NCBI GenBank assembly: GCA_037033465.1
Contig: JAZBLX010000002.1
Span: forward strand, 109,299 to 173,298
Reading direction: 5' to 3'
DNA length: 64,000 bases
Source of the DNA: Bacteroidota bacterium
GTDB taxonomy: Bacteria > Bacteroidota > Bacteroidia > Sphingobacteriales > Sphingobacteriaceae
The notes beneath the pieces were generated by a model that ran no database searches, was not told the origin of the DNA, and saw nothing but the letters and a program-made list of their open reading frames with translations. Below are positions 4,253 through 62,506 of the stretch, piece after piece. Made by a program: the position numbers and the translations under genes. Position 1 is the stretch's first letter. Each line of letters opens with the position of its first letter.

Positions 4253-5905
4253 TTAATAGCCAGGGTTCTGGGCTAAATTCTCGTTTAAGGTTCTTTGAAT
4301 TAAAGGAATTGGAAACAGCTGTCTGAACGGTGCTGATGGTGTATGATCCCACCATGTAGCGGTGTGGAATTTCCCGAAACGAATTAAATCGTCACGTCTA
4401 AAACCTTCAAATACAAACTCACGTCCTCTTTCGTTTAATAATTCATCAAGCGTTAAAGTGGCTGTGGTATACTGGTTTGCTGGCCAGGTAGCTTCTGTGA
4501 ACGCACGTTTCTTGCAGTCGTTAATTAATTGTACAGCCTCTGCATTTGCAGCCCCACCATTTTTACGCATAATGGCTTCTGCTTTTGCAAAATAGATCCA
4601 GGTAAGGCGATACAAATTCCAATCAGTACAATTGTAATTTAAATCGATACCAACAGGATTGCCATTTACGATACCAGCCACGTTGTTACCCAATTTATAT
4701 TTGTTAAAGCGCACGCCACTGTTCTCTTCACCTTCGCTCATGTTTGAAACAGTTGAATTTGCTCTGGCACGACGAATCTCATCAACGAAATTAATTTGCT
4801 GACCATCATATTCATTACCACCTGATGCAAGAGCTGGAGCACCATTATCAAAACGAAACTGTGGACCCTGTAATAACCAGGTACTTTTTCTCAAGTCATC
4901 GTTGCTATATTTAGTATAATTACCTGGAACCATCACCACGCCATTATTTCCATTTCTAGATCCACCATATATTCTGTCTTGCTGAAAATGGAAGAAGTCA
5001 CCGGTCCATGAGGGTTGCGAATTCGCAATTCTAAACTCGTAAGCAATTGCAAAAATAACTTCTTTCGATAGATCGTTAGTCGTTTTAAATTGATCAGTAA
5101 TGTTCGGATCCAATGCCATTGGACCATTCTGACCACCGCCTTCGTTGTTAATCAATTTATTAGCTGCAGCAATACAATCATCCCAGCGTGCAGTACCTGT
5201 CCAAACTTCGGCATTTAAATAAAGTTCTACCAACATGGCATATCCACCAGCTTGCGTCATACGTCCAAGCATGTTTTTCGAAAGTTTTGGAGCTTTATCA
5301 ATATTATCTTTGATTTCCTTCTCGATAAAGGCAAAAACTTCTGCACGCGGCCTGGTTTCGGGCTTTGCTGGTATTCCAATCTGAGTAACAATCGGAATAT
5401 TGCCGAACAGATCCATTAATTTAAGGTAATGATACGCCCTTAACAGTTTTAATTCAGAAATATAAGCGTCTTTTTCTACCTGGGTTACTCCCATTTGTGA
5501 TAGACTGCGTTTTTCTAAATTCTCAATTGGATCATTACAATAACCAACACCACCGAACATCAAACCCCATGCACTGTTTAACGGCCCATCATCTACCAAC
5601 CAGGTGTGGTAGTGCAAGCGTTTCCATTTTCCACCGTCTTCACCATGGCGCCCTTTTGTTGGCCACGCCAGCTGATCGCCAGAAAGCTCAGAAGGCCTCC
5701 ACCATCCATCCTGCCCAGAAGGAGTTGCCCAAGCGTTGGCATGAGTATAAGGTCGTAGCACAGCAGATAGCACTTCGTTTTTATTATTGTAATAATTATC
5801 TGTAATTAATTGACTGTATACATTCTCATCTAGCTTAGTACATGCATTAAATAGTATTGGTGAAGCTACTATCGCCGAGAGAATGACTTTTTTAAATGTT
5901 CTCAT
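4253..5905 (-). CDS. SusD/RagB-family nutrient-binding outer-membrane lipoprotein
   Basis: 550 aa with a lipoprotein signal (LFNAC). The C-terminal RGREF.FEG.R..DL.R and final NPGY are typical of SusD. It lies directly downstream of its SusC partner. Confidence 0.9.
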   Translation of the reverse strand: MRTFKKVILSAIVASPILFNACTKLDENVYSQLITDNYYNNKNEVLSAVLRPYTHANAWATPSGQDGWWRPSELSGDQLAWPTKGRHGEDGGKWKRLHYHTWLVDDGPLNSAWGLMFGGVGYCNDPIENLEKRSLSQMGVTQVEKDAYISELKLLRAYHYLKLMDLFGNIPIVTQIGIPAKPETRPRAEVFAFIEKEIKDNIDKAPKLSKNMLGRMTQAGGYAMLVELYLNAEVWTGTARWDDCIAAANKLINNEGGGQNGPMALDPNITDQFKTTNDLSKEVIFAIAYEFRIANSQPSWTGDFFHFQQDRIYGGSRNGNNGVVMVPGNYTKYSNDDLRKSTWLLQGPQFRFDNGAPALASGGNEYDGQQINFVDEIRRARANSTVSNMSEGEENSGVRFNKYKLGNNVAGIVNGNPVGIDLNYNCTDWNLYRLTWIYFAKAEAIMRKNGGAANAEAVQLINDCKKRAFTEATWPANQYTTATLTLDELLNERGREFVFEGFRRDDLIRFGKFHTATWWDHTPSAPFRQLFPIPLIQRTLNENLAQNPGY

Positions 5906-5916
5906 TTCTTTTATTA

Positions 5917-8900
5917 TTAAAATCCAAAATTAACACCGAAAACAAAACTTCTTGTGGTTGGGTAAGGACTTCTGACATCAATACCTAAACTGCGTCCATT
6001 GATTTCATTTCCTAAACCTACATCCTGAATGGTATCAGGATCATTGCCTGAATAACCTGTTATTAAAGCCAGGTTTTGTCCTACCGCATAAACGCGTAAG
6101 CTTCTGAAAGCTTTATCTTTAAATTTAAATGTGTACCCAAGCGTTACCTCGTCAAGTTTTAGAAAACTTGCATTTTCGACATAGTAATCAGAGTACATAT
6201 AGGTGTCGTTAATTTCTGCGTATTTGGTAAAAGCACTATTTAACAAATTCCCCTGAGTTCCAAATTTATTCCCATAAGATAAGGCAACAGTGTTAAGTGC
6301 ATCAAAGCCCAACTTACTTCTTAAGAATATTCTTAAGTCAAACTGTTTGTAAGTAAAGGTGTTTCCCAAGGAAAGATAATACTTCGGAATCGCATTACCG
6401 ATTGGCTGAAGATCAGTCTGATCTCTAAAAGGAGAAGTGTTGATCTGAGCATTAGGGACTGCCTGGCCTGCTCGGTTATAGAATAACCATTTACCTTCGG
6501 GTGTGAAGCCCGCAAAACGCTTACCCCAAAACTCGCCTATGTTACGGCCTTCATAAGTACGGAATGCATTTCCAAGAGCTCCTGCCCCACCAATACTACC
6601 AAACTCCACCATATCTCTTTTATAGATGTCATTTGAAAAAGTTTCTAACTTATTATCGATGGTGCTTCCTGCAAAATCAACATTCCAGGTGAAGTCGTTT
6701 CCTTTAATTGCTGCATAGCTTAAGGAAAGCTCTATCCCTTTAGCTGAAATAGTACCTACATTTGTATAAATTGAACCTTGAACAAACGGCGGTTGAGGGG
6801 AAGTATAAGTATAAAGTAAATCAACAGTATTACGTTTAAATACCTCTAAGGAACCACTGAGTCTGTTATCCAGCATTCCAAAGTCTATTCCCAAATTATA
6901 TTCACGTTTGCGTTCCCATCTTAAATCAGGATTTGGGTTACGTGATGGGCCATACGTTTGTAACCAGGTACCACCTGGGAAAGGGTAAAGATTACCAGTA
7001 CTCAAAGTAACCAGCGATGCATAATTTGCGAAACCAGAGTTACCTGTTTCTCCGTAGCCAGCTCTTAGCTTCAAGAAGTTAAGCCATTTGGTGTTTTCCA
7101 TAAATTTCTCGCGGGTGATTTCCCATGAAGCAGATAGAGCAGGGAAACTAGCCCACTTGTTGTTTCGTCCAAATCTTGAAGAACCCTCTCTCCTTAATAC
7201 CGCTTCAACGTTCACTTTACCATCGAATGTATAGTGTACACGACCGAACAATCCAATTAAGGTATTATCATCTTTAAAACTTCCGATACCAATTCTATTA
7301 ATACCAACAGGTACTGAACCCAGGTTATTTTCTTCGAAAAGATCGTTAGTATATCCGCGGTTGTTTGCACTAAATTCCTCATTTACTTCATAACGATAAG
7401 AATATCCCACCATTCCGGTTAAACGGTGTTTATCATTGATCATTTTGCTGTATTCTATGGTAGGTTCAAAATTGAAATTTTGTTCCAATCGCGTGCCTTT
7501 GTAAGCATAACCACCACCTGGAGAATCGCCATTTTCAACAGAATTCTGACTGCCGATTGCGCGGTATTGATTATCAATAAATTGGTTTCTTTGGTAAGCT
7601 ACAAATGCAGAGGCTTTCAAATCTTTTATGATATCAATATCGATCTTTCCATCTACCGAGTAGGTTTGCTGACTTCTTTTGTTCTTTTCTTGTTCTAAAC
7701 GAGCAATCTCATTAGTGATGTTCCTTGTAAACAAATAAGAGCCATCAGGATTGTAGTATGATTCTGTAGGGTTTTTAATTAACACAGGTTCCCAACCTCC
7801 GCCACCTAATAAGTTAGCATTATTGATGTTGGATGCAATATTAAACATGGCAGAAACTTTATCTTTGAAACCCTTTTGCGTTAGGCTCATTCTAAACTGA
7901 TATTGCTCCCTAGTGTTTGCCTTTGAGAAACCATCTAACTTATTATAAGTAAATGAGGCACGATAGGTAGATTTATCCCCACCACCAGCTACAGAAAGAT
8001 TTTGGTAATTGGTGAGATTGTCTTCATTAATTAATTCATTAAAATAATCAAAGTCACCTCCAAAATCCTGAGCTTTATATTGTCCACTTGCTAATTTTTC
8101 CCTGAATTGGGTTGCATTCATAAAATCAGGGCGTTCATACAATGTTTCATGTCTGAGATAGCCATTATAATTAAATTGAGAAGGACCTTTACGTCCTTTT
8201 TTAGTAGTTACCAGGATAACACCGGCATTGGCACGTGTACCATAAATTGCTGCTGCCGATCCATCTTTTAAAACAGTAAAAGACTCTATATCATCTTGTT
8301 GAAGTAAATCTAAGTTACCACCAGGAATGCCATCGATAACAATGAGTGGAGAAAGTGATCCAGAGATAGAAGTTACGCCTCGGAGTTGAATAGCTACACC
8401 AGAATTAGGATTGGAACTATTTCTGGAAATTTGTAAACCAGCCACCTTACCTTGTAATAAATCCAAAGCATTTCTCGCTCCACTCTGCCTGAATTGCGAA
8501 GTATCAACTTTGGTAATGGCAGAAGTTAATTCACGCTGACTACGTGTACCATACCCCACAACGACTACATCATCCAATTTCGTATCAGATGCTACAGCTA
8601 GCTTGATATTTAGATTAGTTTCAGCACCAACAGTTACGTTCTGTGTTTGATAACCGAGGAATGTAAACCGGATGACCTCATTTTCGTTTGCTTCAATTTT
8701 AAACTGCCCGTTGGCATCTGTTACCGTACCTTGTCCGGAGGTAATATTCTTAACCCCGACACCCGGAACACCCAGATTTTTTTCATCCACAACTTTCCCG
8801 GTAATTACCTTCCGCACACTTGCTTTGTGCCAGGGAACTTCAACCTCGAGAAGGCCATCGAAATCTTTTCGGTCAGATTCAGCCGAAAGCGCCGGAAAAC

Positions 8901-9242: not shown

Positions 9243-10346
9243 CTATTTGAGGTACGACAAAATCAAACCGGCTGTTTTTGCAGATGCGCCGGGTTTTCCC
9301 ATTAAGCCTAAAAGCTCGTCGTAATGATTAAGCATTGCTGATCTGCCCTCTCCCTTCAGAATTATATTCAATTCAGTATTTACACTAACAGGATTACAAT
9401 CTTCCTGAATCAGTTCGGTTACAATTCTTTTGTCTACGATGAGATTAACAAGGGAGATGAACCTTATTTTAACCAGCATTCTGGCAATAGCAATGGAGAT
9501 TGCCCCCCCTTTATAAACGACCACTTGCGGAAGCTTAAATAAAGCAGTTTCCAGCGTAGCTGTACCAGATGCTACAAGGGCCGCATGCGCTAAATTCAGC
9601 AGATTATAGGTATTATTAAAAAGAAGTTGAACTTTTTTTGTGCCTGTGAACTGATGGTAATAACTCTCAGAAAAAGTAGGTGCAGCGGCGATTACAAAAG
9701 CATAATCCGGATAATTATCAGTGATACTCAGCATTACCGGCAACAATCGTTCAATTTCCTGCTTTCTGCTCCCCGGAAGCAAAGCAATGATTTTTTGATC
9801 ACCAAGATTATTATTCGCTCTGAAATTTGCATCTGGATTGAATTGTGCAATTTCATCTAACAAAGGATTGCCCACATAATCAACCTTCATTCCCCATTCA
9901 CGGTAAAAATCTACTTCAAATGGCAGGATACAAAACATATGATCGACCACCTTTTTGATTTTGAGCACCCGTTTCCGGTTCCAGGCCCACACTTTTGGCG
10001 AAATATAATAACAGACCTTTATGCCATTCGCTTTCGCAAATTCGGCAATCTTCAGGTTGAAACCAGGAAAATCAATCAAGATCAAAACGTCTGGTTTCCA
10101 ATTCAGGATATCAGCTTTGCAAGCTTTTAAATTTTTAAAAATCGTTCTTAAATTCAAAACCACTTCCGTAAATCCCATAAAAGCCATTTCAGCATAGTGT
10201 TTTACGAGTTCTCCGCCTTCAGCCTGCATTTTATCACCACCAAAATACCTGAAAACAGCACTACCATCTTCAGCTTTCAAAGCCTTCATTAAATTTGCAC
10301 CGTGTAAATCGCCGGAGGCTTCTCCTGCTACGAGGTAATATTTCAT
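9243..10346 (-). CDS. lpxB: Lipid-A-disaccharide synthase
   Basis: 367 aa. MKYYLVAGEASGDLHGANLM N-terminus and overall GT19 pattern, in the conserved surE-lpxB neighbourhood. Confidence 0.92.
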   Translation of the reverse strand: MKYYLVAGEASGDLHGANLMKALKAEDGSAVFRYFGGDKMQAEGGELVKHYAEMAFMGFTEVVLNLRTIFKNLKACKADILNWKPDVLILIDFPGFNLKIAEFAKANGIKVCYYISPKVWAWNRKRVLKIKKVVDHMFCILPFEVDFYREWGMKVDYVGNPLLDEIAQFNPDANFRANNNLGDQKIIALLPGSRKQEIERLLPVMLSITDNYPDYAFVIAAAPTFSESYYHQFTGTKKVQLLFNNTYNLLNLAHAALVASGTATLETALFKLPQVVVYKGGAISIAIARMLVKIRFISLVNLIVDKRIVTELIQEDCNPVSVNTELNIILKGEGRSAMLNHYDELLGLMGKPGASAKTAGLILSYLK

Positions 10347-10356
10347 GTTCTAGTAT

Positions 10357-10510
10357 TGAGTAGTGAGTGGTAAGTCTTACGTAATAAGTTTTAAGTAATA
10401 TGTATTGACTTTATACATTTTTATTTTCTATTTCCTGTTTTCTATTCCCTGCTTTCCATCCCCTGCTTTCCATTCCCTATTTTCTACTTCCTATTCCCTA
10501 TTCTGTTTCT
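10357..10510 (-). repeat. Heptamer-phased degenerate tandem repeat, 22 consecutive 7-nt units
   Basis: Plus strand reads TGAGTAG TGAGTGG TAAGTCT TACGTAA TAAGTTT TAAGTAA TATGTAT TGACTTT ATACATT TTTATTT TCTATTT CCTGTTT TCTATTC CCTGCTT TCCATCC CCTGCTT TCCATTC CCTATTT TCTACTT CCTATTC CCTATTC TGTTTCT. On the sense (minus) strand it starts at the stop codon of the 90-aa gene as GGAATAGG-type purine words. Confidence 0.8.
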
Positions 10511-10782
10511 CAAAAAACTTTATAAGCGAAGAAAATAAGTGCACAAAGAAAAGTAGCGGCTAAAATACCCCTTCCAATATTTTCTTTATTGAATTTAAAG
10601 AAATACTGCATAATGTAAGCATTCACGGCAATTCCACCGATATATAATAAATCTGCCTTTGCCAGTGATGCAACATGATGAATAATAAACCAGGCGATAG
10701 CACATAGCGTAGCCGGGGATAATAAACCGATCCACAGACCAATCCACACGGAATTATTTAGCTTCCTTAAGCGATCCTGCAT
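10510..10782 (-). CDS. Small integral membrane protein (about 3 TM), function unknown
   Basis: 90 aa and hydrophobic (WIGLWIGLLSPATLCAIAWFII..., ILAATFLCALIFFAY). Tightly packed, 5 nt after surE. Confidence 0.6.
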   Translation of the reverse strand: MQDRLRKLNNSVWIGLWIGLLSPATLCAIAWFIIHHVASLAKADLLYIGGIAVNAYIMQYFFKFNKENIGRGILAATFLCALIFFAYKVF

Positions 10783-11838: not shown

Positions 11839-14772
11839 ATGAAAATCAAACTATTTACTTTAGCTTGTTTTCTAATTGCGGGTACAGTTGCACAGGCACA
11901 AAATACCTATCAATGGAAAACAGGATCCTCTGGTGGCTATAGCTACAAATTCGTAACAAACGACCCTACAAAAACCCGTTTTTATACGCTAAAAAATGGC
12001 TTAACAGTTATTTTATCTCAAAATAACAAAGAGCCAAATATTGTATATAAAATGGCGGTAAGGGCAGGAAGTAATACCGACCCACGAACCAATACGGGTT
12101 TAGCACATTATTTAGAGCATTTGTTGTTTAAGGGAACGGATAAATTCGGAACATTAAACTATGCAAAAGAAAAGCCACTACTAGATAAAATTGAAGCACT
12201 TTACGAAACGTATATTAAAACAACCGACCCCCTAAAACGGAAGGAAATTTATGCTGAGATTGATAAAACTTCAGGGGAAGCCTCAAATTATTCTATTGCA
12301 AATGAGTACGATAAAATGATGAAATCAATCGGTAGCAGTTCAACAAATGCACATACTTCTGTTGAAGAAACCGTTTATGAAGAAGATCTTCCATCAAATG
12401 CCATTGATAAATTCTTATCGGTTCAGGCAGAACGTTTCCGCTCACCGGTGTTCCGGATTTTCCATACCGAACTGGAAGCCGTGTACGAAGAAAAAAACAT
12501 TGGTATGGATAACGATGGCCGCAAAATGTATGAGAAAATGCTTAATGCATTATTCCCTACACACAATTATGGTCAGCAAACTACAATCGGTACAATAGAA
12601 CACCTTAAAAACCCTTCTCTGGTAGAAATCAGGAAATATTACAACAAATATTATGTACCAAACAATATGGCTTTGATTATGTCTGGCGATATTAATTACG
12701 ACGACCTTATTAAAAAAGTGGACAAGGATTTTTCATACATGGTTTCCAAACCATTAGCGCTGTATAATCCAGCGGCAGAAAAACCACTTACTCAGGTACA
12801 AAAGGTTGATATTTATGGTCCGAGTGCAGAAAATTTATATGTAGCCTACCGTGGTTTTGCACAAAATTCCCGTCAAAGCTTATTATTGGATTTAATTGGA
12901 AGCATTTTATCTAACGGCAAAGCAGGTTTGATGGATATTAACATCAACAAGCAACAAAAAATGTTACGTGCAAATGCAGGTTACAACCAGATGAAAGATT
13001 ACGGAATTTTCATTCTATCTGGTTCGCCTAAAGCCGGACAAAGCTTAGAAGAAGCGCAAAAATTATTATTAGAACAGGTTGATTTACTTAAAAAAGGTGA
13101 GTTTGATGAAAGCCTGATTAAAGCAACTGTAGCGAATATTAAATTAGGAGAATTACAGGGTTTCGACAACAATGATGTACGTGCAGATTATACCATGACG
13201 GCTTTTATTCAAAACCGCGGAAATGAATGGGATAAAATGCTCTCCTCAACCGATGCCATGGGTAAGGTAACGAAAAAAGAAATTGTAGATTTTGCCAACA
13301 AATTCTTCATTAATAATTATGTTTCTGTTTTCAAACATAAAGGTGAAGATAAAAGCATCCTAAAAGTTGAAAAACCAATTATTACGGCCGTTAAAACCAA
13401 CACCAACGAAGTTTCTCCATTTACAAGAACTGTTATTGCTGCACCGGTAAAACCGATTGCACCTAAGTTCCTAGATTATACCAAAGATCTTAATTTTGGC
13501 AAGGCTGGCATCGCCGATGTAATCTCCGTTCAAAATAATGAGAATGGAATTTTCCGCATGAGCTACCGTTTTGAAATGGGTTCTTACAATTACAAACTTT
13601 TACCTTACGCCGCTCAATATCTTGCTTTTTTAAGTACTGATAAATATTCTGCGGAAGATGTCAGCAAAGCTTTTTATAACATCGCTTGCAGCTATAGCGT
13701 AAATGTAGGAAACGATGTAACCACAATAGCTGTTTCAGGATTACAGGAAAACTTTGATAAAGCGCTGGCTCTGGTAGAAGACGTATTGGCCAACTGTAAG
13801 CCTAATGAAAAGGCGCTGGAAGATTTGAAAGGCAGGATTTTAAAATCGAGAGAAAATGCGAAATTAAATAAGTCATCTATTTTAGGTGGTTTGATGAGTT
13901 ATGCCCAATATGGCACAGATAACCCATTCAATTATGGCTTAACGAACGATGAGATCAAAAACATGAAATCATCTGATTTAATTTACCTGTTGCATAACTT
14001 AACCAATTACCAACACACCATCACCTATTATGGCCCTAAAAACATAACAGCTTTATCTGATGATATTGTTAAAGTTCATCGTTTAGCCAGCGAGTTTACT
14101 CCGATAGCACCGATGAAGAAATTTGTCTACACTAAAACAGATTCAAACAAGGTGTATTTCGCGGATTATGATATGGTGCAGGCTGAAATTCGTTGGGTAA
14201 GAAACGGCGGGTTATATGATCCTGCAAACTCAGCAAAAATCGGCTTATTTAATAATTATTTTGGTGGTGGCATGGGCTCTATTGTTTTCCAAACCATCCG
14301 CGAATCTAAAGCATTGGCTTATTCTACTTTCGCGGTATACTCTAGTCCGAATACCAAAGAAAAAGAAAATACGGTGGTAGCTTATGTGGGTACGCAAGCT
14401 GATAAAATGAATGATGCAGTTGCGGGAATGAATGAGTTGCTAAATACTTTGCCAGAATCCGACAAGTCTTTCGCCCTTTCAAAAACCAATTCCTTAAATG
14501 GTTTAGAAACATCACGCATCACAAAAGATGGTATTATTGCAAGTTACCTTGCCGACAAAAAATTAGGTTATGATCATGACTCCAGAATTGATGAATATGC
14601 TAACCTTAAACCATTAACTTTTGCTGATATCAATACTTTTCACCACGATAATTTATCTACCAAGCCATACAGCTATTGTGTTGTTGCTTCAGAGAAAAAA
14701 ATTAACATGGCAGATTTGGCAAAATTTGGCCCGGTTACTAAGTTAACTTTAGAGCAGATTTTCGGATACTAA
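11839..14772 (+). CDS. M16-family (insulinase/pitrilysin-like) zinc peptidase, secreted, double-length
   Basis: 977 aa with a signal peptide and the inverted zinc motif HYLEHLLF (HxxEH). Confidence 0.85.
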   Translation: MKIKLFTLACFLIAGTVAQAQNTYQWKTGSSGGYSYKFVTNDPTKTRFYTLKNGLTVILSQNNKEPNIVYKMAVRAGSNTDPRTNTGLAHYLEHLLFKGTDKFGTLNYAKEKPLLDKIEALYETYIKTTDPLKRKEIYAEIDKTSGEASNYSIANEYDKMMKSIGSSSTNAHTSVEETVYEEDLPSNAIDKFLSVQAERFRSPVFRIFHTELEAVYEEKNIGMDNDGRKMYEKMLNALFPTHNYGQQTTIGTIEHLKNPSLVEIRKYYNKYYVPNNMALIMSGDINYDDLIKKVDKDFSYMVSKPLALYNPAAEKPLTQVQKVDIYGPSAENLYVAYRGFAQNSRQSLLLDLIGSILSNGKAGLMDININKQQKMLRANAGYNQMKDYGIFILSGSPKAGQSLEEAQKLLLEQVDLLKKGEFDESLIKATVANIKLGELQGFDNNDVRADYTMTAFIQNRGNEWDKMLSSTDAMGKVTKKEIVDFANKFFINNYVSVFKHKGEDKSILKVEKPIITAVKTNTNEVSPFTRTVIAAPVKPIAPKFLDYTKDLNFGKAGIADVISVQNNENGIFRMSYRFEMGSYNYKLLPYAAQYLAFLSTDKYSAEDVSKAFYNIACSYSVNVGNDVTTIAVSGLQENFDKALALVEDVLANCKPNEKALEDLKGRILKSRENAKLNKSSILGGLMSYAQYGTDNPFNYGLTNDEIKNMKSSDLIYLLHNLTNYQHTITYYGPKNITALSDDIVKVHRLASEFTPIAPMKKFVYTKTDSNKVYFADYDMVQAEIRWVRNGGLYDPANSAKIGLFNNYFGGGMGSIVFQTIRESKALAYSTFAVYSSPNTKEKENTVVAYVGTQADKMNDAVAGMNELLNTLPESDKSFALSKTNSLNGLETSRITKDGIIASYLADKKLGYDHDSRIDEYANLKPLTFADINTFHHDNLSTKPYSYCVVASEKKINMADLAKFGPVTKLTLEQIFGY

Positions 14773-14778
14773 AAGAAG

Positions 14779-14862
14779 GAAAGATGAAAGCTCGAAGCTA
14801 AAAGACTAAAGCTGAAAGCGAGGTTTAGCGCAAGTGGAAGACGATAAACGCGAGACGAAAAA
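14779..14862 (+). repeat. Heptamer-phased purine-rich repeat starting just after the stop codon
   Basis: GAAAGAT GAAAGCT CGAAGCT AAAAGAC TAAAGCT GAAAGCG AGGTTTA GCGCAAG TGGAAGA CGATAAA CGCGAGA CGAAAAA. The xGAAG/AAAG word recurs at exact 7-nt spacing six times. Confidence 0.75.
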
Positions 14863-14865
14863 TAA

Positions 14866-14899
14866 AAAGCGATTTCTGGAAACAGGAATCGCTTTTTTT
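14866..14899. terminator. Bidirectional intrinsic terminator between convergent genes
   Basis: AAAGCGATT(T)C pairs with GAATCGCTTT. It is flanked by an A-run and a T-run. Confidence 0.8.
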
Positions 14900-14910
14900 G
14901 TGGTGCTAGT

Positions 14911-28836: not shown

Positions 28837-28846
28837 GTTTATAAAA

Positions 28847-28923
28847 AAGGTTTAAGGTAAAAGGTGTAAAATTTAGGGTTCAGACAATCTGCCTTAAACC
28901 CTAAACCTTACACCTTAAACAAC
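28847..28923 (-). repeat. Heptamer-phased hairpin element (AAGGTNN words / AAACCTT words)
   Basis: AAGGTTT AAGGTAA AAGGTGT AAAATTT AGGGTTC AGACAAT CTGCCTT AAACCCT AAACCTT ACACCTT AAACAAC. The arms are complementary at word level, with one unit bulged. Confidence 0.8.
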
Positions 28924-28955
28924 GCAAGTTACTATTTCTTGCGATTAATTATAAA

Positions 28956-31749: not shown

Positions 31750-32427
31750 ATGTACCTGATCAAATCACCGCTTCTGCTAAAATGGTATTATCCATCATTA
31801 CTTTGGAATAAATCCCGCACCGAAAAAGTTATTTATTTGACCTTTGACGATGGACCTATACCCAATGTTACAGATTTTGTTTTAAAAACTTTAAAAGCCT
31901 TTAACGCAAAAGCTACATTTTTTTGCATCGGTGACAATATTGTTAAGCATCCCGACGTTTACGCGAATATCTTAAATGACGGACATGCCATCGGAAACCA
32001 TACTTTTAATCATTTAAAAGGCTGGAAAACCGATGATGAAACCTATATCCAAAACACTTTAAAATGCCAGGCACTTACGCAATCAAATCTTTTTCGCCCA
32101 CCTTACGGAAGGATCAAGAAGAGTCAGATTGCGAGTCTTCAGTCCTTAGTCCTTAATCCGAAGTCAGACTTTAGATTTGAGACTCCAGACTCCAAACTCA
32201 AGACTCCAGACTCAAGACTAGACATCATCATGTGGGATGTCCTGAGTGGCGATTTTGACATCAACTTATCTCCTGAAAAATGTTATCAAAACGTGATAAA
32301 TCATACCGAAAATGGTTCGATTATCGTATTTCATGATAGCTTAAAAGCATTTGACCGATTAGCATACGCATTGCCTCGGGCATTAAAATATTTTGCAGAT
32401 AAAGGTTTCGCTTTTTCAACGTTGTAG
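31750..32427 (+). CDS. Polysaccharide deacetylase (NodB/CE4 domain) carrying an in-frame repeat insertion
   Basis: CE4 motifs LTFDDGP, GNHTFNH, RPPYG, IIMWDV and VFHDS are present. About 20 extra residues with the 7-aa repeat TPDSKLK TPDSRLD lie between RPPYG and IIMWDV. Confidence 0.8.
   Translation: MYLIKSPLLLKWYYPSLLWNKSRTEKVIYLTFDDGPIPNVTDFVLKTLKAFNAKATFFCIGDNIVKHPDVYANILNDGHAIGNHTFNHLKGWKTDDETYIQNTLKCQALTQSNLFRPPYGRIKKSQIASLQSLVLNPKSDFRFETPDSKLKTPDSRLDIIMWDVLSGDFDINLSPEKCYQNVINHTENGSIIVFHDSLKAFDRLAYALPRALKYFADKGFAFSTL
32133..32223 (+). repeat. Heptamer-phased repeat lying inside the deacetylase CDS
   Basis: GAGTCTT CAGTCCT TAGTCCT TAATCCG AAGTCAG ACTTTAG ATTTGAG ACTCCAG ACTCCAA ACTCAAG ACTCCAG ACTCAAG ACTAGAC. 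ACTCN words fall at exact 7-nt spacing six times. Left-arm AGTCYTT words complement right-arm AAGACT words. Confidence 0.8.
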
Positions 32428-32710
32428 CCGTGAGCGATTGTTATGCCACTAAAAAGATAGTGCTATCGCGCAACCTGAATGAAGATTTATCAAAAGCACA
32501 ATTCTTAGAACGTTCGGAATCGAACAACACCGTCCGGTATTGAACAGTGATCTGATATGATAAAAAGCAACAGGCAAAATTCACATTCAACATTTATTTA
32601 GAATATTTCCAAATAATACAATGATCTCAGGATGACCTACCGTAGAACATTTTTTTCGTAAATTCGCAGCTAGTAGAATAGAAGTATTACCTTTTAACCA
32701 ATAAAAATCG

Positions 32711-61650: not shown

Positions 61651-61909
61651 AGGAAACAGACAAGAGGGGAAATGGGAAATAGATAGAAGGAAATGAAAAA
61701 TAGTAAGTGGGGGAATAGGAAATAGACAAATGGAAAAATAAGAAATAGGTAACGAACAGATCAAGATAGAAGGACAAAAGGATGAAAACAATATAAATAC
61801 CTCCCATTAAATCCATTTCCTAACATCTGATTCCTAATATCTATTTCCTATTCCCTTAAACCCATTTCCTAATACCTATACCTATTTCCTAACACCTATT
61901 TCCTAAAAT
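61651..61909 (+). repeat. Largest heptamer-phased element (about 37 units) in the kdpB-kdpC spacer
   Basis: The purine arm reads GGGAAAT GGGAAAT AGATAGA AGGAAAT GAAAAAT AGTAAGT ..GGAAT AGGAAAT AGACAAA... In the pyrimidine arm ATTTCCT recurs at 61815, 61843, 61864, 61884 and 61898. There is a 16-nt perfect inverted core at 61711-26 / 61840-55. Confidence 0.85.
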
Positions 61910-61945
61910 ATATTCTCAAAGAAATCTTTAAAAATTAAAAATATC

Positions 61946-62506
61946 ATGAAAAAATACATCATACCATCATTACGCTTAACCTTGGTTCTAATCGTACTAT
62001 TATGCATTATCTACCCCATCAGCATTGCGCTTGCAGGCAAATTTTCTAAAGGAAATGGCGGTGGAGAAAAAATCACTAAAAATGGCAAAACGATAGGTTA
62101 TGCTTTGCTCGGTCAATCGTTTACCAAACCAGAATATTTCTCTGGCAGACCATCAGCTGTAGGTTACAACGCTGCAGGTTCCGCAGGTTCAAATAAAGGC
62201 CCATCAAATCCGGACTACTTAAAAGATGTTCAGTCCAGAATTGATACCCTATTGAAATATAACGCTGATTTGAAAAAATCAGATATCCCTGCAGACATGG
62301 TCACTGCATCTGGCAGTGGTTTAGACCCTAACATCTCTGAGCAAGGTGCCGCCATTCAGGTTGCAAGAGTAGCCAAAGCCCGTAAAATAAGCGAGCAAAA
62401 AGTAAAAGAATTGATTGCCATGAATACGATAAAACCATTATTAGGCTTGTTCGGCCCTTCATCAGTAAATGTATTGAAATTGAATTTAGCATTAGATAAT
62501 TTGTAG
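61946..62506 (+). CDS. kdpC: K+-transporting ATPase subunit C
   Basis: 186 aa. N-terminal TM anchor, SGSGLDP.IS motif. Confidence 0.92.
   Translation: MKKYIIPSLRLTLVLIVLLCIIYPISIALAGKFSKGNGGGEKITKNGKTIGYALLGQSFTKPEYFSGRPSAVGYNAAGSAGSNKGPSNPDYLKDVQSRIDTLLKYNADLKKSDIPADMVTASGSGLDPNISEQGAAIQVARVAKARKISEQKVKELIAMNTIKPLLGLFGPSSVNVLKLNLALDNL

Follow-up and report, generated by a model that had tools for sequence, protein, structure and literature searches.

Repeats whose unit is not a multiple of three nucleotides (nt) are normally thought to be excluded from coding DNA. Heptanucleotide repeats, which are attributed to polymerase slippage, form the commonest class of long simple sequence repeats (LSSR) in bacteria (Mrazek 2007, as summarised in PMC4679880). 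The GGGAATC heptamer arrays of Xanthomonas, which include 70-75 inverted pairs, are under-represented in open reading frames (ORF) (PMC4692102). Palindromic repeats have also been described in frame within protein genes: the Rickettsia palindromic elements (RPE; Ogata et al. 2000), BRE, RUP and others (PMC3184786). We analyzed a stretch of 64,000 nt from a Bacteroidota bacterium (contig JAZBLX010000002.1, positions 109,299 to 173,298), hereafter the window, in which 13 heptamers lie in frame within the gene of a polysaccharide deacetylase of the NodB type (carbohydrate esterase family 4, CE4) and are translated. Such a translated heptamer array in a conserved enzyme is a variant of both the known heptanucleotide repeats and the known in-frame palindromic repeats. 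The element probably consists of two heptanucleotide microsatellites in inverted orientation, (AGTCNNN)n and then (NNNGACT)n, evolving by slippage and recombination under a reading-frame filter within a tolerant loop of the enzyme.

Sequence and layout of the heptamer element

The element (32133-32223) reads GAGTCTT CAGTCCT TAGTCCT TAATCCG AAGTCAG ACTTTAG ATTTGAG ACTCCAG ACTCCAA ACTCAAG ACTCCAG ACTCAAG ACTAGAC. It is located between the RPPYG motif and the IIMWDV strand of the deacetylase, and the ORF, which reads RPPYGRIKKSQIASLQSLVLNPKSDFRFETPDSKLKTPDSRLDIIMWDV, is open across it. The first-pass annotation of the window had described 13 phased heptamers in an open frame at this place, and the sequence matches this reading exactly. 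These heptamers had however been taken for one element of 13 units, whereas they are not a single direct array: they form two inverted arrays, five units with an AGTC core and then eight with a GACT core, and the element is a decayed palindrome.

The 7-nt periodicity, which was at first only read by eye, is present on formal analysis. Tandem Repeats Finder (TRF) reported period 7 at 32141-32159 (AGTCCTT, 2.7 copies) and at 32180-32219 (AGACTCC, 5.7 copies, score 59). In sliding segments of 56 nt, the lag-7 autocorrelation reaches 0.75 at the element, the maximum of the 64 kb, and lags 5, 6, 8, 9 and 10 are below 0.62 throughout; a stricter scan (42 nt, threshold 0.66) gave matches for lag 7 alone. 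Head-to-tail copies of 7 nt are thus present beyond chance according to both TRF and autocorrelation. At the element, autocorrelation is 0.75 at lag 7, 0.68 at lag 14 and 0.57 at lag 21, from which it follows that the unit is of 7 nt and that the element is not a repeat of 21 nt or of 7 amino acids (aa). A strict core search, in which at least three 4-nt cores at 7-nt spacing had to be followed by at least three complementary cores, found the element as its sole match in the window and found nothing in ten Markov-shuffled windows. Unit identity is far from perfect: TRF matches are 84-91%, at most two identical units follow each other, and conservation does not extend beyond a 4-nt core. The element contains no G-quadruplex motif.

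The peptide repeat TPDSKLK/TPDSRLD does arise from three 7-nt units, as annotated, one heptamer being read in three phases. Since the same heptamer codes for different residues of TPDSKLK in each phase, selection at the peptide level cannot have made the repeat. The features of the locus are listed in Table 1.

Table 1. Coordinates in the window of the deacetylase gene, the heptamer element and its parts
Feature	Position	Strand	Evidence
CE4 / NodB-type polysaccharide deacetylase gene, 225 aa, intact ORF	31750..32427	+	ORF listing, Pfam, structure matches
RPPYG codons (CE4 motif 3), upstream anchor of the variable linker	32095..32109	+	direct reading; invariant in 28 orthologues
Codons of helix K124-L133 (KSQIASLQSL)	32119..32148	+	AlphaFold2 helix 124-133; L130 invariant
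In-frame heptamer element, 13 phased 7-nt units, translated SLQSLVLNPKSDFRFETPDSKLKTPDSRLD	32133..32223	+	sequence, TRF, autocorrelation, core search
Left arm, 5 AGTC-core units (AGTCTTC AGTCCTT AGTCCTT AATCCGA AGTCAGA)	32134..32168	+	phased layout, TRF 32141-32159
Symmetry centre AGTC-A-GACT	32162..32170	.	direct reading; same centre in alleles of the 29-aa class
Right arm, 8 units with the complementary GACT/ACTC core	32167..32219	+	TRF 32180-32219
Codons of the strand and motif-4 region, DIIMWDVLSGDF, downstream anchor	32221..32256	+	invariant columns I159, M161-F169

Host gene and position of the insert

The 225-aa protein belongs to Pfam family PF01522 (E=4.5e-27, 94.9 bits for a cut-off of 23.1), and its sequence matches solved CE4 structures at ~1e-24. 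Its AlphaFold2 (AF2) model has the CE4 fold, with template modelling (TM) scores of 0.6-0.75 and E ~1e-11 against PdaC, PgdA and related structures. All its best matches are from Pedobacter, the nearest being 96% identical, and the window is from a species of this genus. The five NodB motifs had been announced as intact. This holds for T31FDDG, H84TFNH88, R116PPY(G) and IVFH195D, which are canonical and invariant in orthologues, but motif 4 is LSGDF and not DxxD(W/Y), a family-specific variant kept across orthologues. The region DIIMWDVLSGDF, which contains this motif, aligns with IMWDVDSLDW of SpPgdA.

Mapping the insert on the AF2 model, as had been proposed, places it in a predicted disordered helix-to-strand loop. 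The model shows a helix at residues 124-133, a predicted local distance difference test (pLDDT) below 50 at residues 136-153, and then a strand at ~158 which leads to motif 4; the C-terminal half of the helix is already overlapped by the first left-arm units. CE4 enzymes are (beta/alpha)-barrels, a fold whose catalytic residues are located at the C-terminal ends of the strands. From what is known of the fold, this helix-to-strand loop would thus lie on the opposite face of the barrel, away from the catalytic site, and we propose that the enzyme tolerates the insert for this reason.

Orthologous loci and age of the insertion

We collected 80 orthologous loci from species-representative Pedobacter genomes. 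Together with L081, the nearest strain, they make 81 loci, and with the window 82 alleles. Orthology is supported by a TolC-like gene upstream of the CE4 gene in 80 of the 81 loci, L081 included. The uninterrupted allele, for which the first-pass annotation had suggested a search, was found in basal species such as P. steynii, P. caeni, P. africanus, P. nyackensis and P. cryoconitis: the protein is of 205 aa and its 16-aa linker, SQIxxLRxEFPELQII, is non-periodic (lag 7 ~0.29). About 50 of the 80 species genomes carry an insert at exactly the same site. Their linkers range from 20 to 88 aa and are nearly all of period 7 with two inverted arms, the mean lag-7 value of the 50 insertion alleles being 0.53, compared to 0.26 in the remainder of the gene. 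On an independent tree built from the neighbouring aconitase gene, the insertion alleles group together without exception, and the linkers of the basal clade are of 16 aa. On this tree the insertion has a single origin and, being common at the same site to a large Pedobacter clade, it is old and not recent as had been supposed.

The segment is extra with respect to the whole family, as annotated: outside Pedobacter, 93 of the 96 family representatives having both motifs show 14-18 residues from RPPYG to the next strand, compared to 38 in the window. In the solved homologue 7y51, 7 residues occupy the place of 29 in the window protein, which is close to the 8-10 that had been given for homologues. 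The insertion as a whole is not a multiple of 21 nt, the net excess over the basal allele being 60 nt; the 21-nt rule holds only between close alleles, with linkers of 22, 29 and 36 aa.

The largest expansion seen is that of Pedobacter sp. UYP30 (L069, 3001-3831), where the CE4 orthologue is of 277 aa with an 88-aa linker made of several distinct period-7 blocks: GGAGTCG/GGAGGTC, CAGTCAG, then CCCTAAA/CCCTCTA-type units. On the 3' side, an aconitase gene follows the CE4 gene in the window but in only 47 of the 81 loci (L001-L081). One subclade has a different gene there, and synteny breaks immediately downstream of CE4.

Recent turnover of the linker

The left arm is constant at five units among close relatives, and the right arm comprises two units in L005 (22-aa linker), five in L001 (29 aa) and eight in the window (36 aa), i.e. 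exact steps of 21 nt. Proteins of the corresponding lengths (211, 218 and 225 aa) are found repeatedly in a set of 120 homologue clusters, and the 90%-identity cluster of the window protein itself contains four members of 225 aa and one of 218 aa; copy number is thus polymorphic among close relatives. Sequence turnover is concentrated in the same place. L081 is 98.5% identical to the window over 3 kb upstream, and 10 of the 12 nucleotide differences in the gene fall at 32162-32221, as do in the linker all nine amino-acid differences, which makes the right arm a hotspot of strain differences. Among equal-length alleles, the linker core shows 52% aa identity, compared to 93% in the flanks. The ORF is nevertheless open through the C-terminal motifs in 82 alleles out of 82. 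What is recent is therefore the copy-number steps and the turnover of sequence, and not the insertion itself.

These figures bear on the possibility that the segment is a selected protein feature, a flexible tether or interaction loop with a 7-aa repeat that the nucleotide period would mirror. Many species have kept the loop over a long time, and its residues (S, L, K, T, D, P, Q) are those usual in linkers. This explanation is nonetheless very unlikely: the period is of 7 nt and not 21, identity in the linker is low compared to the flanks, length varies from 20 to 88 aa with several species having returned to 16 aa, and the norm in the family is to be without the segment. The first-pass annotation had itself named amino-acid conservation in place of nucleotide repetition as an observation against a repeat origin; the orthologous segments are variable as peptides and periodic as nucleotides.

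Reading-frame and stop-codon filter

As 7 and 3 share no factor, an array of at least three units passes through every reading phase. When slips of +/-7 or +/-14 nt were simulated, the protein was truncated at residues 154-171, hence only net changes in multiples of 3 nt survive. Stop codons impose a further constraint: a unit passes if it is stop-free in all phases, and in a two-armed element the same is needed for its reverse complement. AGACTCC and GACTCCC, which are common units of the right arm, are stop-free on both arms, as are AACTCCC/GGAGTTT and AGTCCGA, and AGACTCA fails (TCA). CAAATCT, which is stop-free as a direct array only, was found one-armed only (L031, L032, L037). A perfect AGTCCTT array would contain an in-frame TAG, which the degenerate fourth unit of the left arm avoids in the window. 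Every intergenic unit type of the window fails the filter on at least one arm. Because both arms must be stop-free, spacers cannot stay complementary inside the gene. We rejected the stop filter alone as the cause of the choice of an AGTC/GACT core: about 35-50% of all heptamers would pass it.

A unit that is not a multiple of three, together with truncation on single or double slips, is also what would be expected of a phase-variation switch, in which gain or loss of one 7-nt unit turns the deacetylase on or off. We find this hardly credible. Contingency loci have long perfect tracts and out-of-frame alleles; here units are imperfect with no more than two identical copies in tandem, none of the 82 alleles is out of frame, and Pedobacter is a soil or water genus with no context of host adaptation. 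Two proteins, P0123 and P0203, were considered as frameshifted alleles and discarded as evidence for phase variation, since their divergence is not at the heptamer array.

Other period-7 arrays in the window and in Pedobacter

Over 595 kb of Pedobacter DNA, only period 7 is over-represented, with 39 hits, compared to 0-2 for each other period from 4 to 12. The CE4 site accounts for 29 of these hits, and the remaining 10 are all outside long ORFs. The window does contain period-7 arrays in intergenic DNA, as annotated, at 28842-28928, 61685-61915, 10348-10503 and 14779-14819. They had been considered as the same class of element as the CE4 insert. This is correct for the architecture (period 7, inverted arms) but not for the sequence, which is not shared: the intergenic units are unrelated to AGTC, and "same class" must therefore be understood as architecture. 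Members of a dispersed family would have a consensus of at least ~100 nt in common across many loci; the other period-7 units of the window and of the 595 kb are unrelated to that of the element.

The array at 28842-28928 is an intergenic hairpin of heptamers, AAGGTTT AAGGTAA AAGGTGT ... CCTTAAA CCCTAAA CCTTACA CCTTAAA (AAGGNNN/CCTTNNN), with a minimum free energy of -25.5 kcal/mol (z = -5.0). It is located between glycerol-3-phosphate dehydrogenase-like and membrane-fusion-protein genes, and period-7 arrays are found at the orthologous spacer in L016, L018, L025 and L029. At 61685-61915, a purine-rich array of GGAAATA type faces a pyrimidine-rich array of period 7/14 (TTTCCTAAYAYCTA), forming an imperfect inverted repeat of 230 nt (z = -2.45) upstream of ORF 61946..62506. 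The region 10348-10503, between ORFs 9243..10346 and 10510..10782, contains two adjacent non-complementary arrays of period 7/14, (NAGTNNT)8 then (TTTCTATTCCCTG)n, and no hairpin. The one-armed (GAAAGCT)n array at 14779-14819 directly follows the stop of ORF 11839..14772, and a terminator-like stem with a T-run (AAAGCGATTTCTGGAAACAGGAATCGCTTTTTTT) is present downstream of it at 14868-14900. In a metagenome-assembled genome (MAG) of Pedobacter, L051, the intergenic region 6226-6433 carries consecutive (AAAGATC)n, (TTGAGAC)n and (CTTTACT)n arrays with lag-7 values up to 0.86; units containing GACT thus occur outside genes too in Pedobacter.

Pairing and folding of the two arms

The complementarity of the arms was examined in the 13 orthologues whose linker is of 87 nt: 59.8% of cells are paired in the palindrome register, compared to 20-36% in slid registers. 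AGT/ACT cores are nearly invariant in these equal-length alleles and the 3-nt spacers are mostly unpaired. Compensatory covariation among the 13 alleles showed no excess over shuffled controls (72/500). Pairing is register-specific but covariation is not in excess, and we therefore do not claim a selected RNA structure; the inverted symmetry of the element itself is real. Compared to dinucleotide shuffles, the folding z-score is below -2 in 22 of the 50 insertion alleles (down to -5.3) and in 3 of the 28 alleles with a 16-aa linker. The window allele, in which the right arm (8 units) has outgrown the left arm (5 units), is without significant structure (z = -0.6 as RNA, -0.5 as DNA). No Rfam 15 family matched the window at gathering thresholds, and a search of 31900-32450 at E<=1 brought no match either.

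A hairpin could be the object of selection in mRNA or DNA, as a processing, pausing or stability signal or as a protein-binding array, the peptide being a by-product. Against it stand the unstructured window allele, the covariation at shuffle level with pairing carried by invariant cores of 3-4 nt between mostly unpaired spacers, the loss of the second arm or of the whole insert in several lineages whose gene is still intact, and the lack of a U-tract and of an Rfam match. It would on the other hand agree with the 22 alleles that fold far better than shuffles, with the matched arms kept by lineages having different cores (AGTC/GACT or GGAGTT/AACTCC), and with the strong structure of intergenic relatives such as 28842-28928. 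On balance, we consider such selection improbable.

A parallel in LipB

Metagenomes were scanned for five AGTC cores spaced at 7 nt, which gave 120 stretches from many taxa. They are mostly non-coding, and several have an inverted GACT arm. Stretches flagged as possibly coding in high-GC contigs were discarded, since long open frames arise there by chance. In the low-GC contig Ga0193740_1001438 (L108), an AGTC/GACT hairpin lies in frame near the start of lipB (reverse strand, ~4957-5090). Compared to 1w66, it lengthens LipB by ~31 residues where the first helix leads to the LLFVEHP strand, a helix-to-strand junction equivalent to that of the CE4 insert. The named homologues of this LipB fragment are from Chitinophagaceae, and the linkers of LipB homologues (proteins P0294-P0411) are 20-70 aa long and contain 7-aa repeats, among them NSELRTH NSELRTQ NSELRTQ and PDSRLPA PDSQLPT. 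In a Chitinophagaceae MAG (L202, 1501-1818), the N-terminal lipB ORF contains a direct array of seven GACTCCC-type units. The heptamer-coded linker of LipB shows that translated heptamer linkers are not unique to the CE4 gene or to Pedobacter. A protein search for other in-frame AGTC/GACT arrays with a synthetic consensus peptide (KSLKSLVLSPKSEVRSPKSDSRLKTQ...) returned 19 short hypothetical ORFs and no domain-bearing protein.

In L202 (GCA_016706495.1, 1501-2306), the annotation of lipB consists of two overlapping ORFs (105 and 163 aa). The split is shortly past the heptamer-coded linker and could be a frameshift or an assembly error.

The two cases raise the rather doubtful possibility that a recurrent process in Bacteroidota builds inverted heptamer arrays, which would repeatedly colonise helix-to-strand loops of housekeeping enzymes (CE4 in Pedobacter, LipB in Chitinophagaceae); this process might possibly involve fold-back or template-switch replication on slipped arrays. 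If true, hypervariable disordered loops would be genus-wide, as a microsatellite-driven counterpart of protein sequence creation of the RPE type, and the complementarity of the arms would be kept by concerted evolution and not by selection.

Origin and evolution of the element

The element would have arisen a single time, in an ancestor common to a large Pedobacter clade, and most probably by expansion of native codons at the two ends of the original 16-aa linker: the left arm would have been seeded by Ser-Leu (AGT CTN), the right arm by x-Leu (NNA CTN). The native Ser-Leu codons correspond to the first left unit, and the basal allele L052 already has AGTCTG at this place; on the other side, the codon of the invariant Leu that precedes the strand is overlapped by the last right unit. 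Capture of a pre-formed array may be an alternative origin; the exact 5+5 palindrome and the AGTC core in LipB would also fit it. Later evolution would combine replication slippage and turnover of array units with the replacement, from time to time, of the entire linker by recombination. Selection on the enzyme would pass only net length changes in multiples of 3 nt, which within one arm means three units, i.e. 21 nt or 7 aa, and only variants whose units are stop-free in every phase. The product would be a hypervariable disordered peptide with a 7-aa period. In the window, the palindrome is largely decayed (five units against eight) and probably neutral for the enzyme.

The junctions also bear on a mobile or dispersed origin, i.e. 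a palindromic AGTC/GACT element of RPE type, or of the type of miniature inverted-repeat transposable elements, which would have inserted once in frame and since degenerated, expanded or contracted. The single origin on the tree and the palindromic 5+5 layout with its precise AGTC-A-GACT centre are what such an element would give, and AGTC-core arrays with inverted GACT arms are common in metagenomes; the in-frame LipB hairpin of L108, the direct GACTCCC array of L202 lipB and the intergenic (GAGACTT)n of the Pedobacter MAG L051 point the same way. At the junctions, however, neither terminal inverted repeats nor a target-site duplication were seen by eye, and the arms merge into native codons, the outermost units coinciding with the invariant Leu codons and with the AGTCTG of L052. 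Moreover the consensus is limited to a 4-nt core, and intergenic arrays of the same genome use unrelated units. A mobile element thus appears unlikely.

Several observations weigh against the reading that we prefer, that of an inverted pair of microsatellites growing in place and filtered by the frame. Perfect tandem runs are only two units long, so that slippage should now be slow. Substitutions are clustered between near-identical strains, which conversion or recombination could explain instead of slippage. Linkers can also differ abruptly: L031, L032 and L037 have a 48-nt (CAAATCT)4 linker, and L028 and L014, whose TolC is 98% identical, have a 99-nt hairpin. The CE4 flanks of L031 and L028 are 2-3% different, with differences between the two groups clustered within 35 nt upstream of the linker, and the linkers are so unlike that even the Ser codon family differs. 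This suggests a short-tract recombinational replacement, the switch being too abrupt for slippage. About half of the insertion alleles keep a significantly stable hairpin despite fast turnover, which pure neutral decay does not predict. The AGTC/GACT core found in LipB of another family could indicate a dispersed element and not growth in place. Finally, the AF2 model on which the loop is defined is of moderate quality (mean pLDDT 67).

Significance and comparison with known systems

The CE4 element is a clear natural case of a repeat with a unit that is not a multiple of three persisting in a conserved enzyme. It shows how the frame reshapes a repeat, through steps of 21 nt, stop-free units and arms that are unable to stay perfectly complementary. 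Between 4 and 72 extra residues are tolerated in the CE4 loop, and possibly in that of LipB, a property of use in protein engineering, and the linker is a fast-evolving marker for typing Pedobacter strains. Together with the LipB case, it hints at heptamer arrays as a repeated source of new disordered protein segments in Bacteroidota. Our literature searches found no description of the period-7 arrays of Pedobacter and no paper on translated heptamer arrays.

Heptanucleotide LSSR, as described by Mrazek, in Xanthomonas and as short tandemly repeated repetitive (STRR) sequences of cyanobacteria, resemble the element by their 7-nt unit, their tandem arrangement and their variation in copy number among strains; they often occur as two convergent arrays able to form stem-loops, and slippage is their presumed cause. 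They are overwhelmingly intergenic, whereas the CE4 element is translated and persists throughout a genus in a conserved enzyme. Its units are also degenerate, unlike theirs, with a 4-nt core and a variable 3-nt spacer shaped by the frame.

RPE and the CE4 element have in common that palindromic DNA of non-coding type is located in frame in housekeeping enzymes, where it is translated and tolerated in surface regions; in the CE4 gene, register complementarity, 82 intact ORFs and a disordered loop correspond to palindromic DNA in frame at a permissive site. RPE are however of 105-146 nt, with a family consensus and many loci, whereas the CE4 element has a 4-nt core only, 7-nt units and 21-nt steps, and no evidence of its mobility was found. 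Lastly, coding variable-number tandem repeats and phase-variable contingency loci are also tandem repeats within an ORF with length polymorphism among strains. The units of coding variable-number tandem repeats are normally multiples of three, compared to 7 nt here, and contingency loci have long perfect tracts with out-of-frame alleles, whereas the tracts of the CE4 element are imperfect and always in frame.

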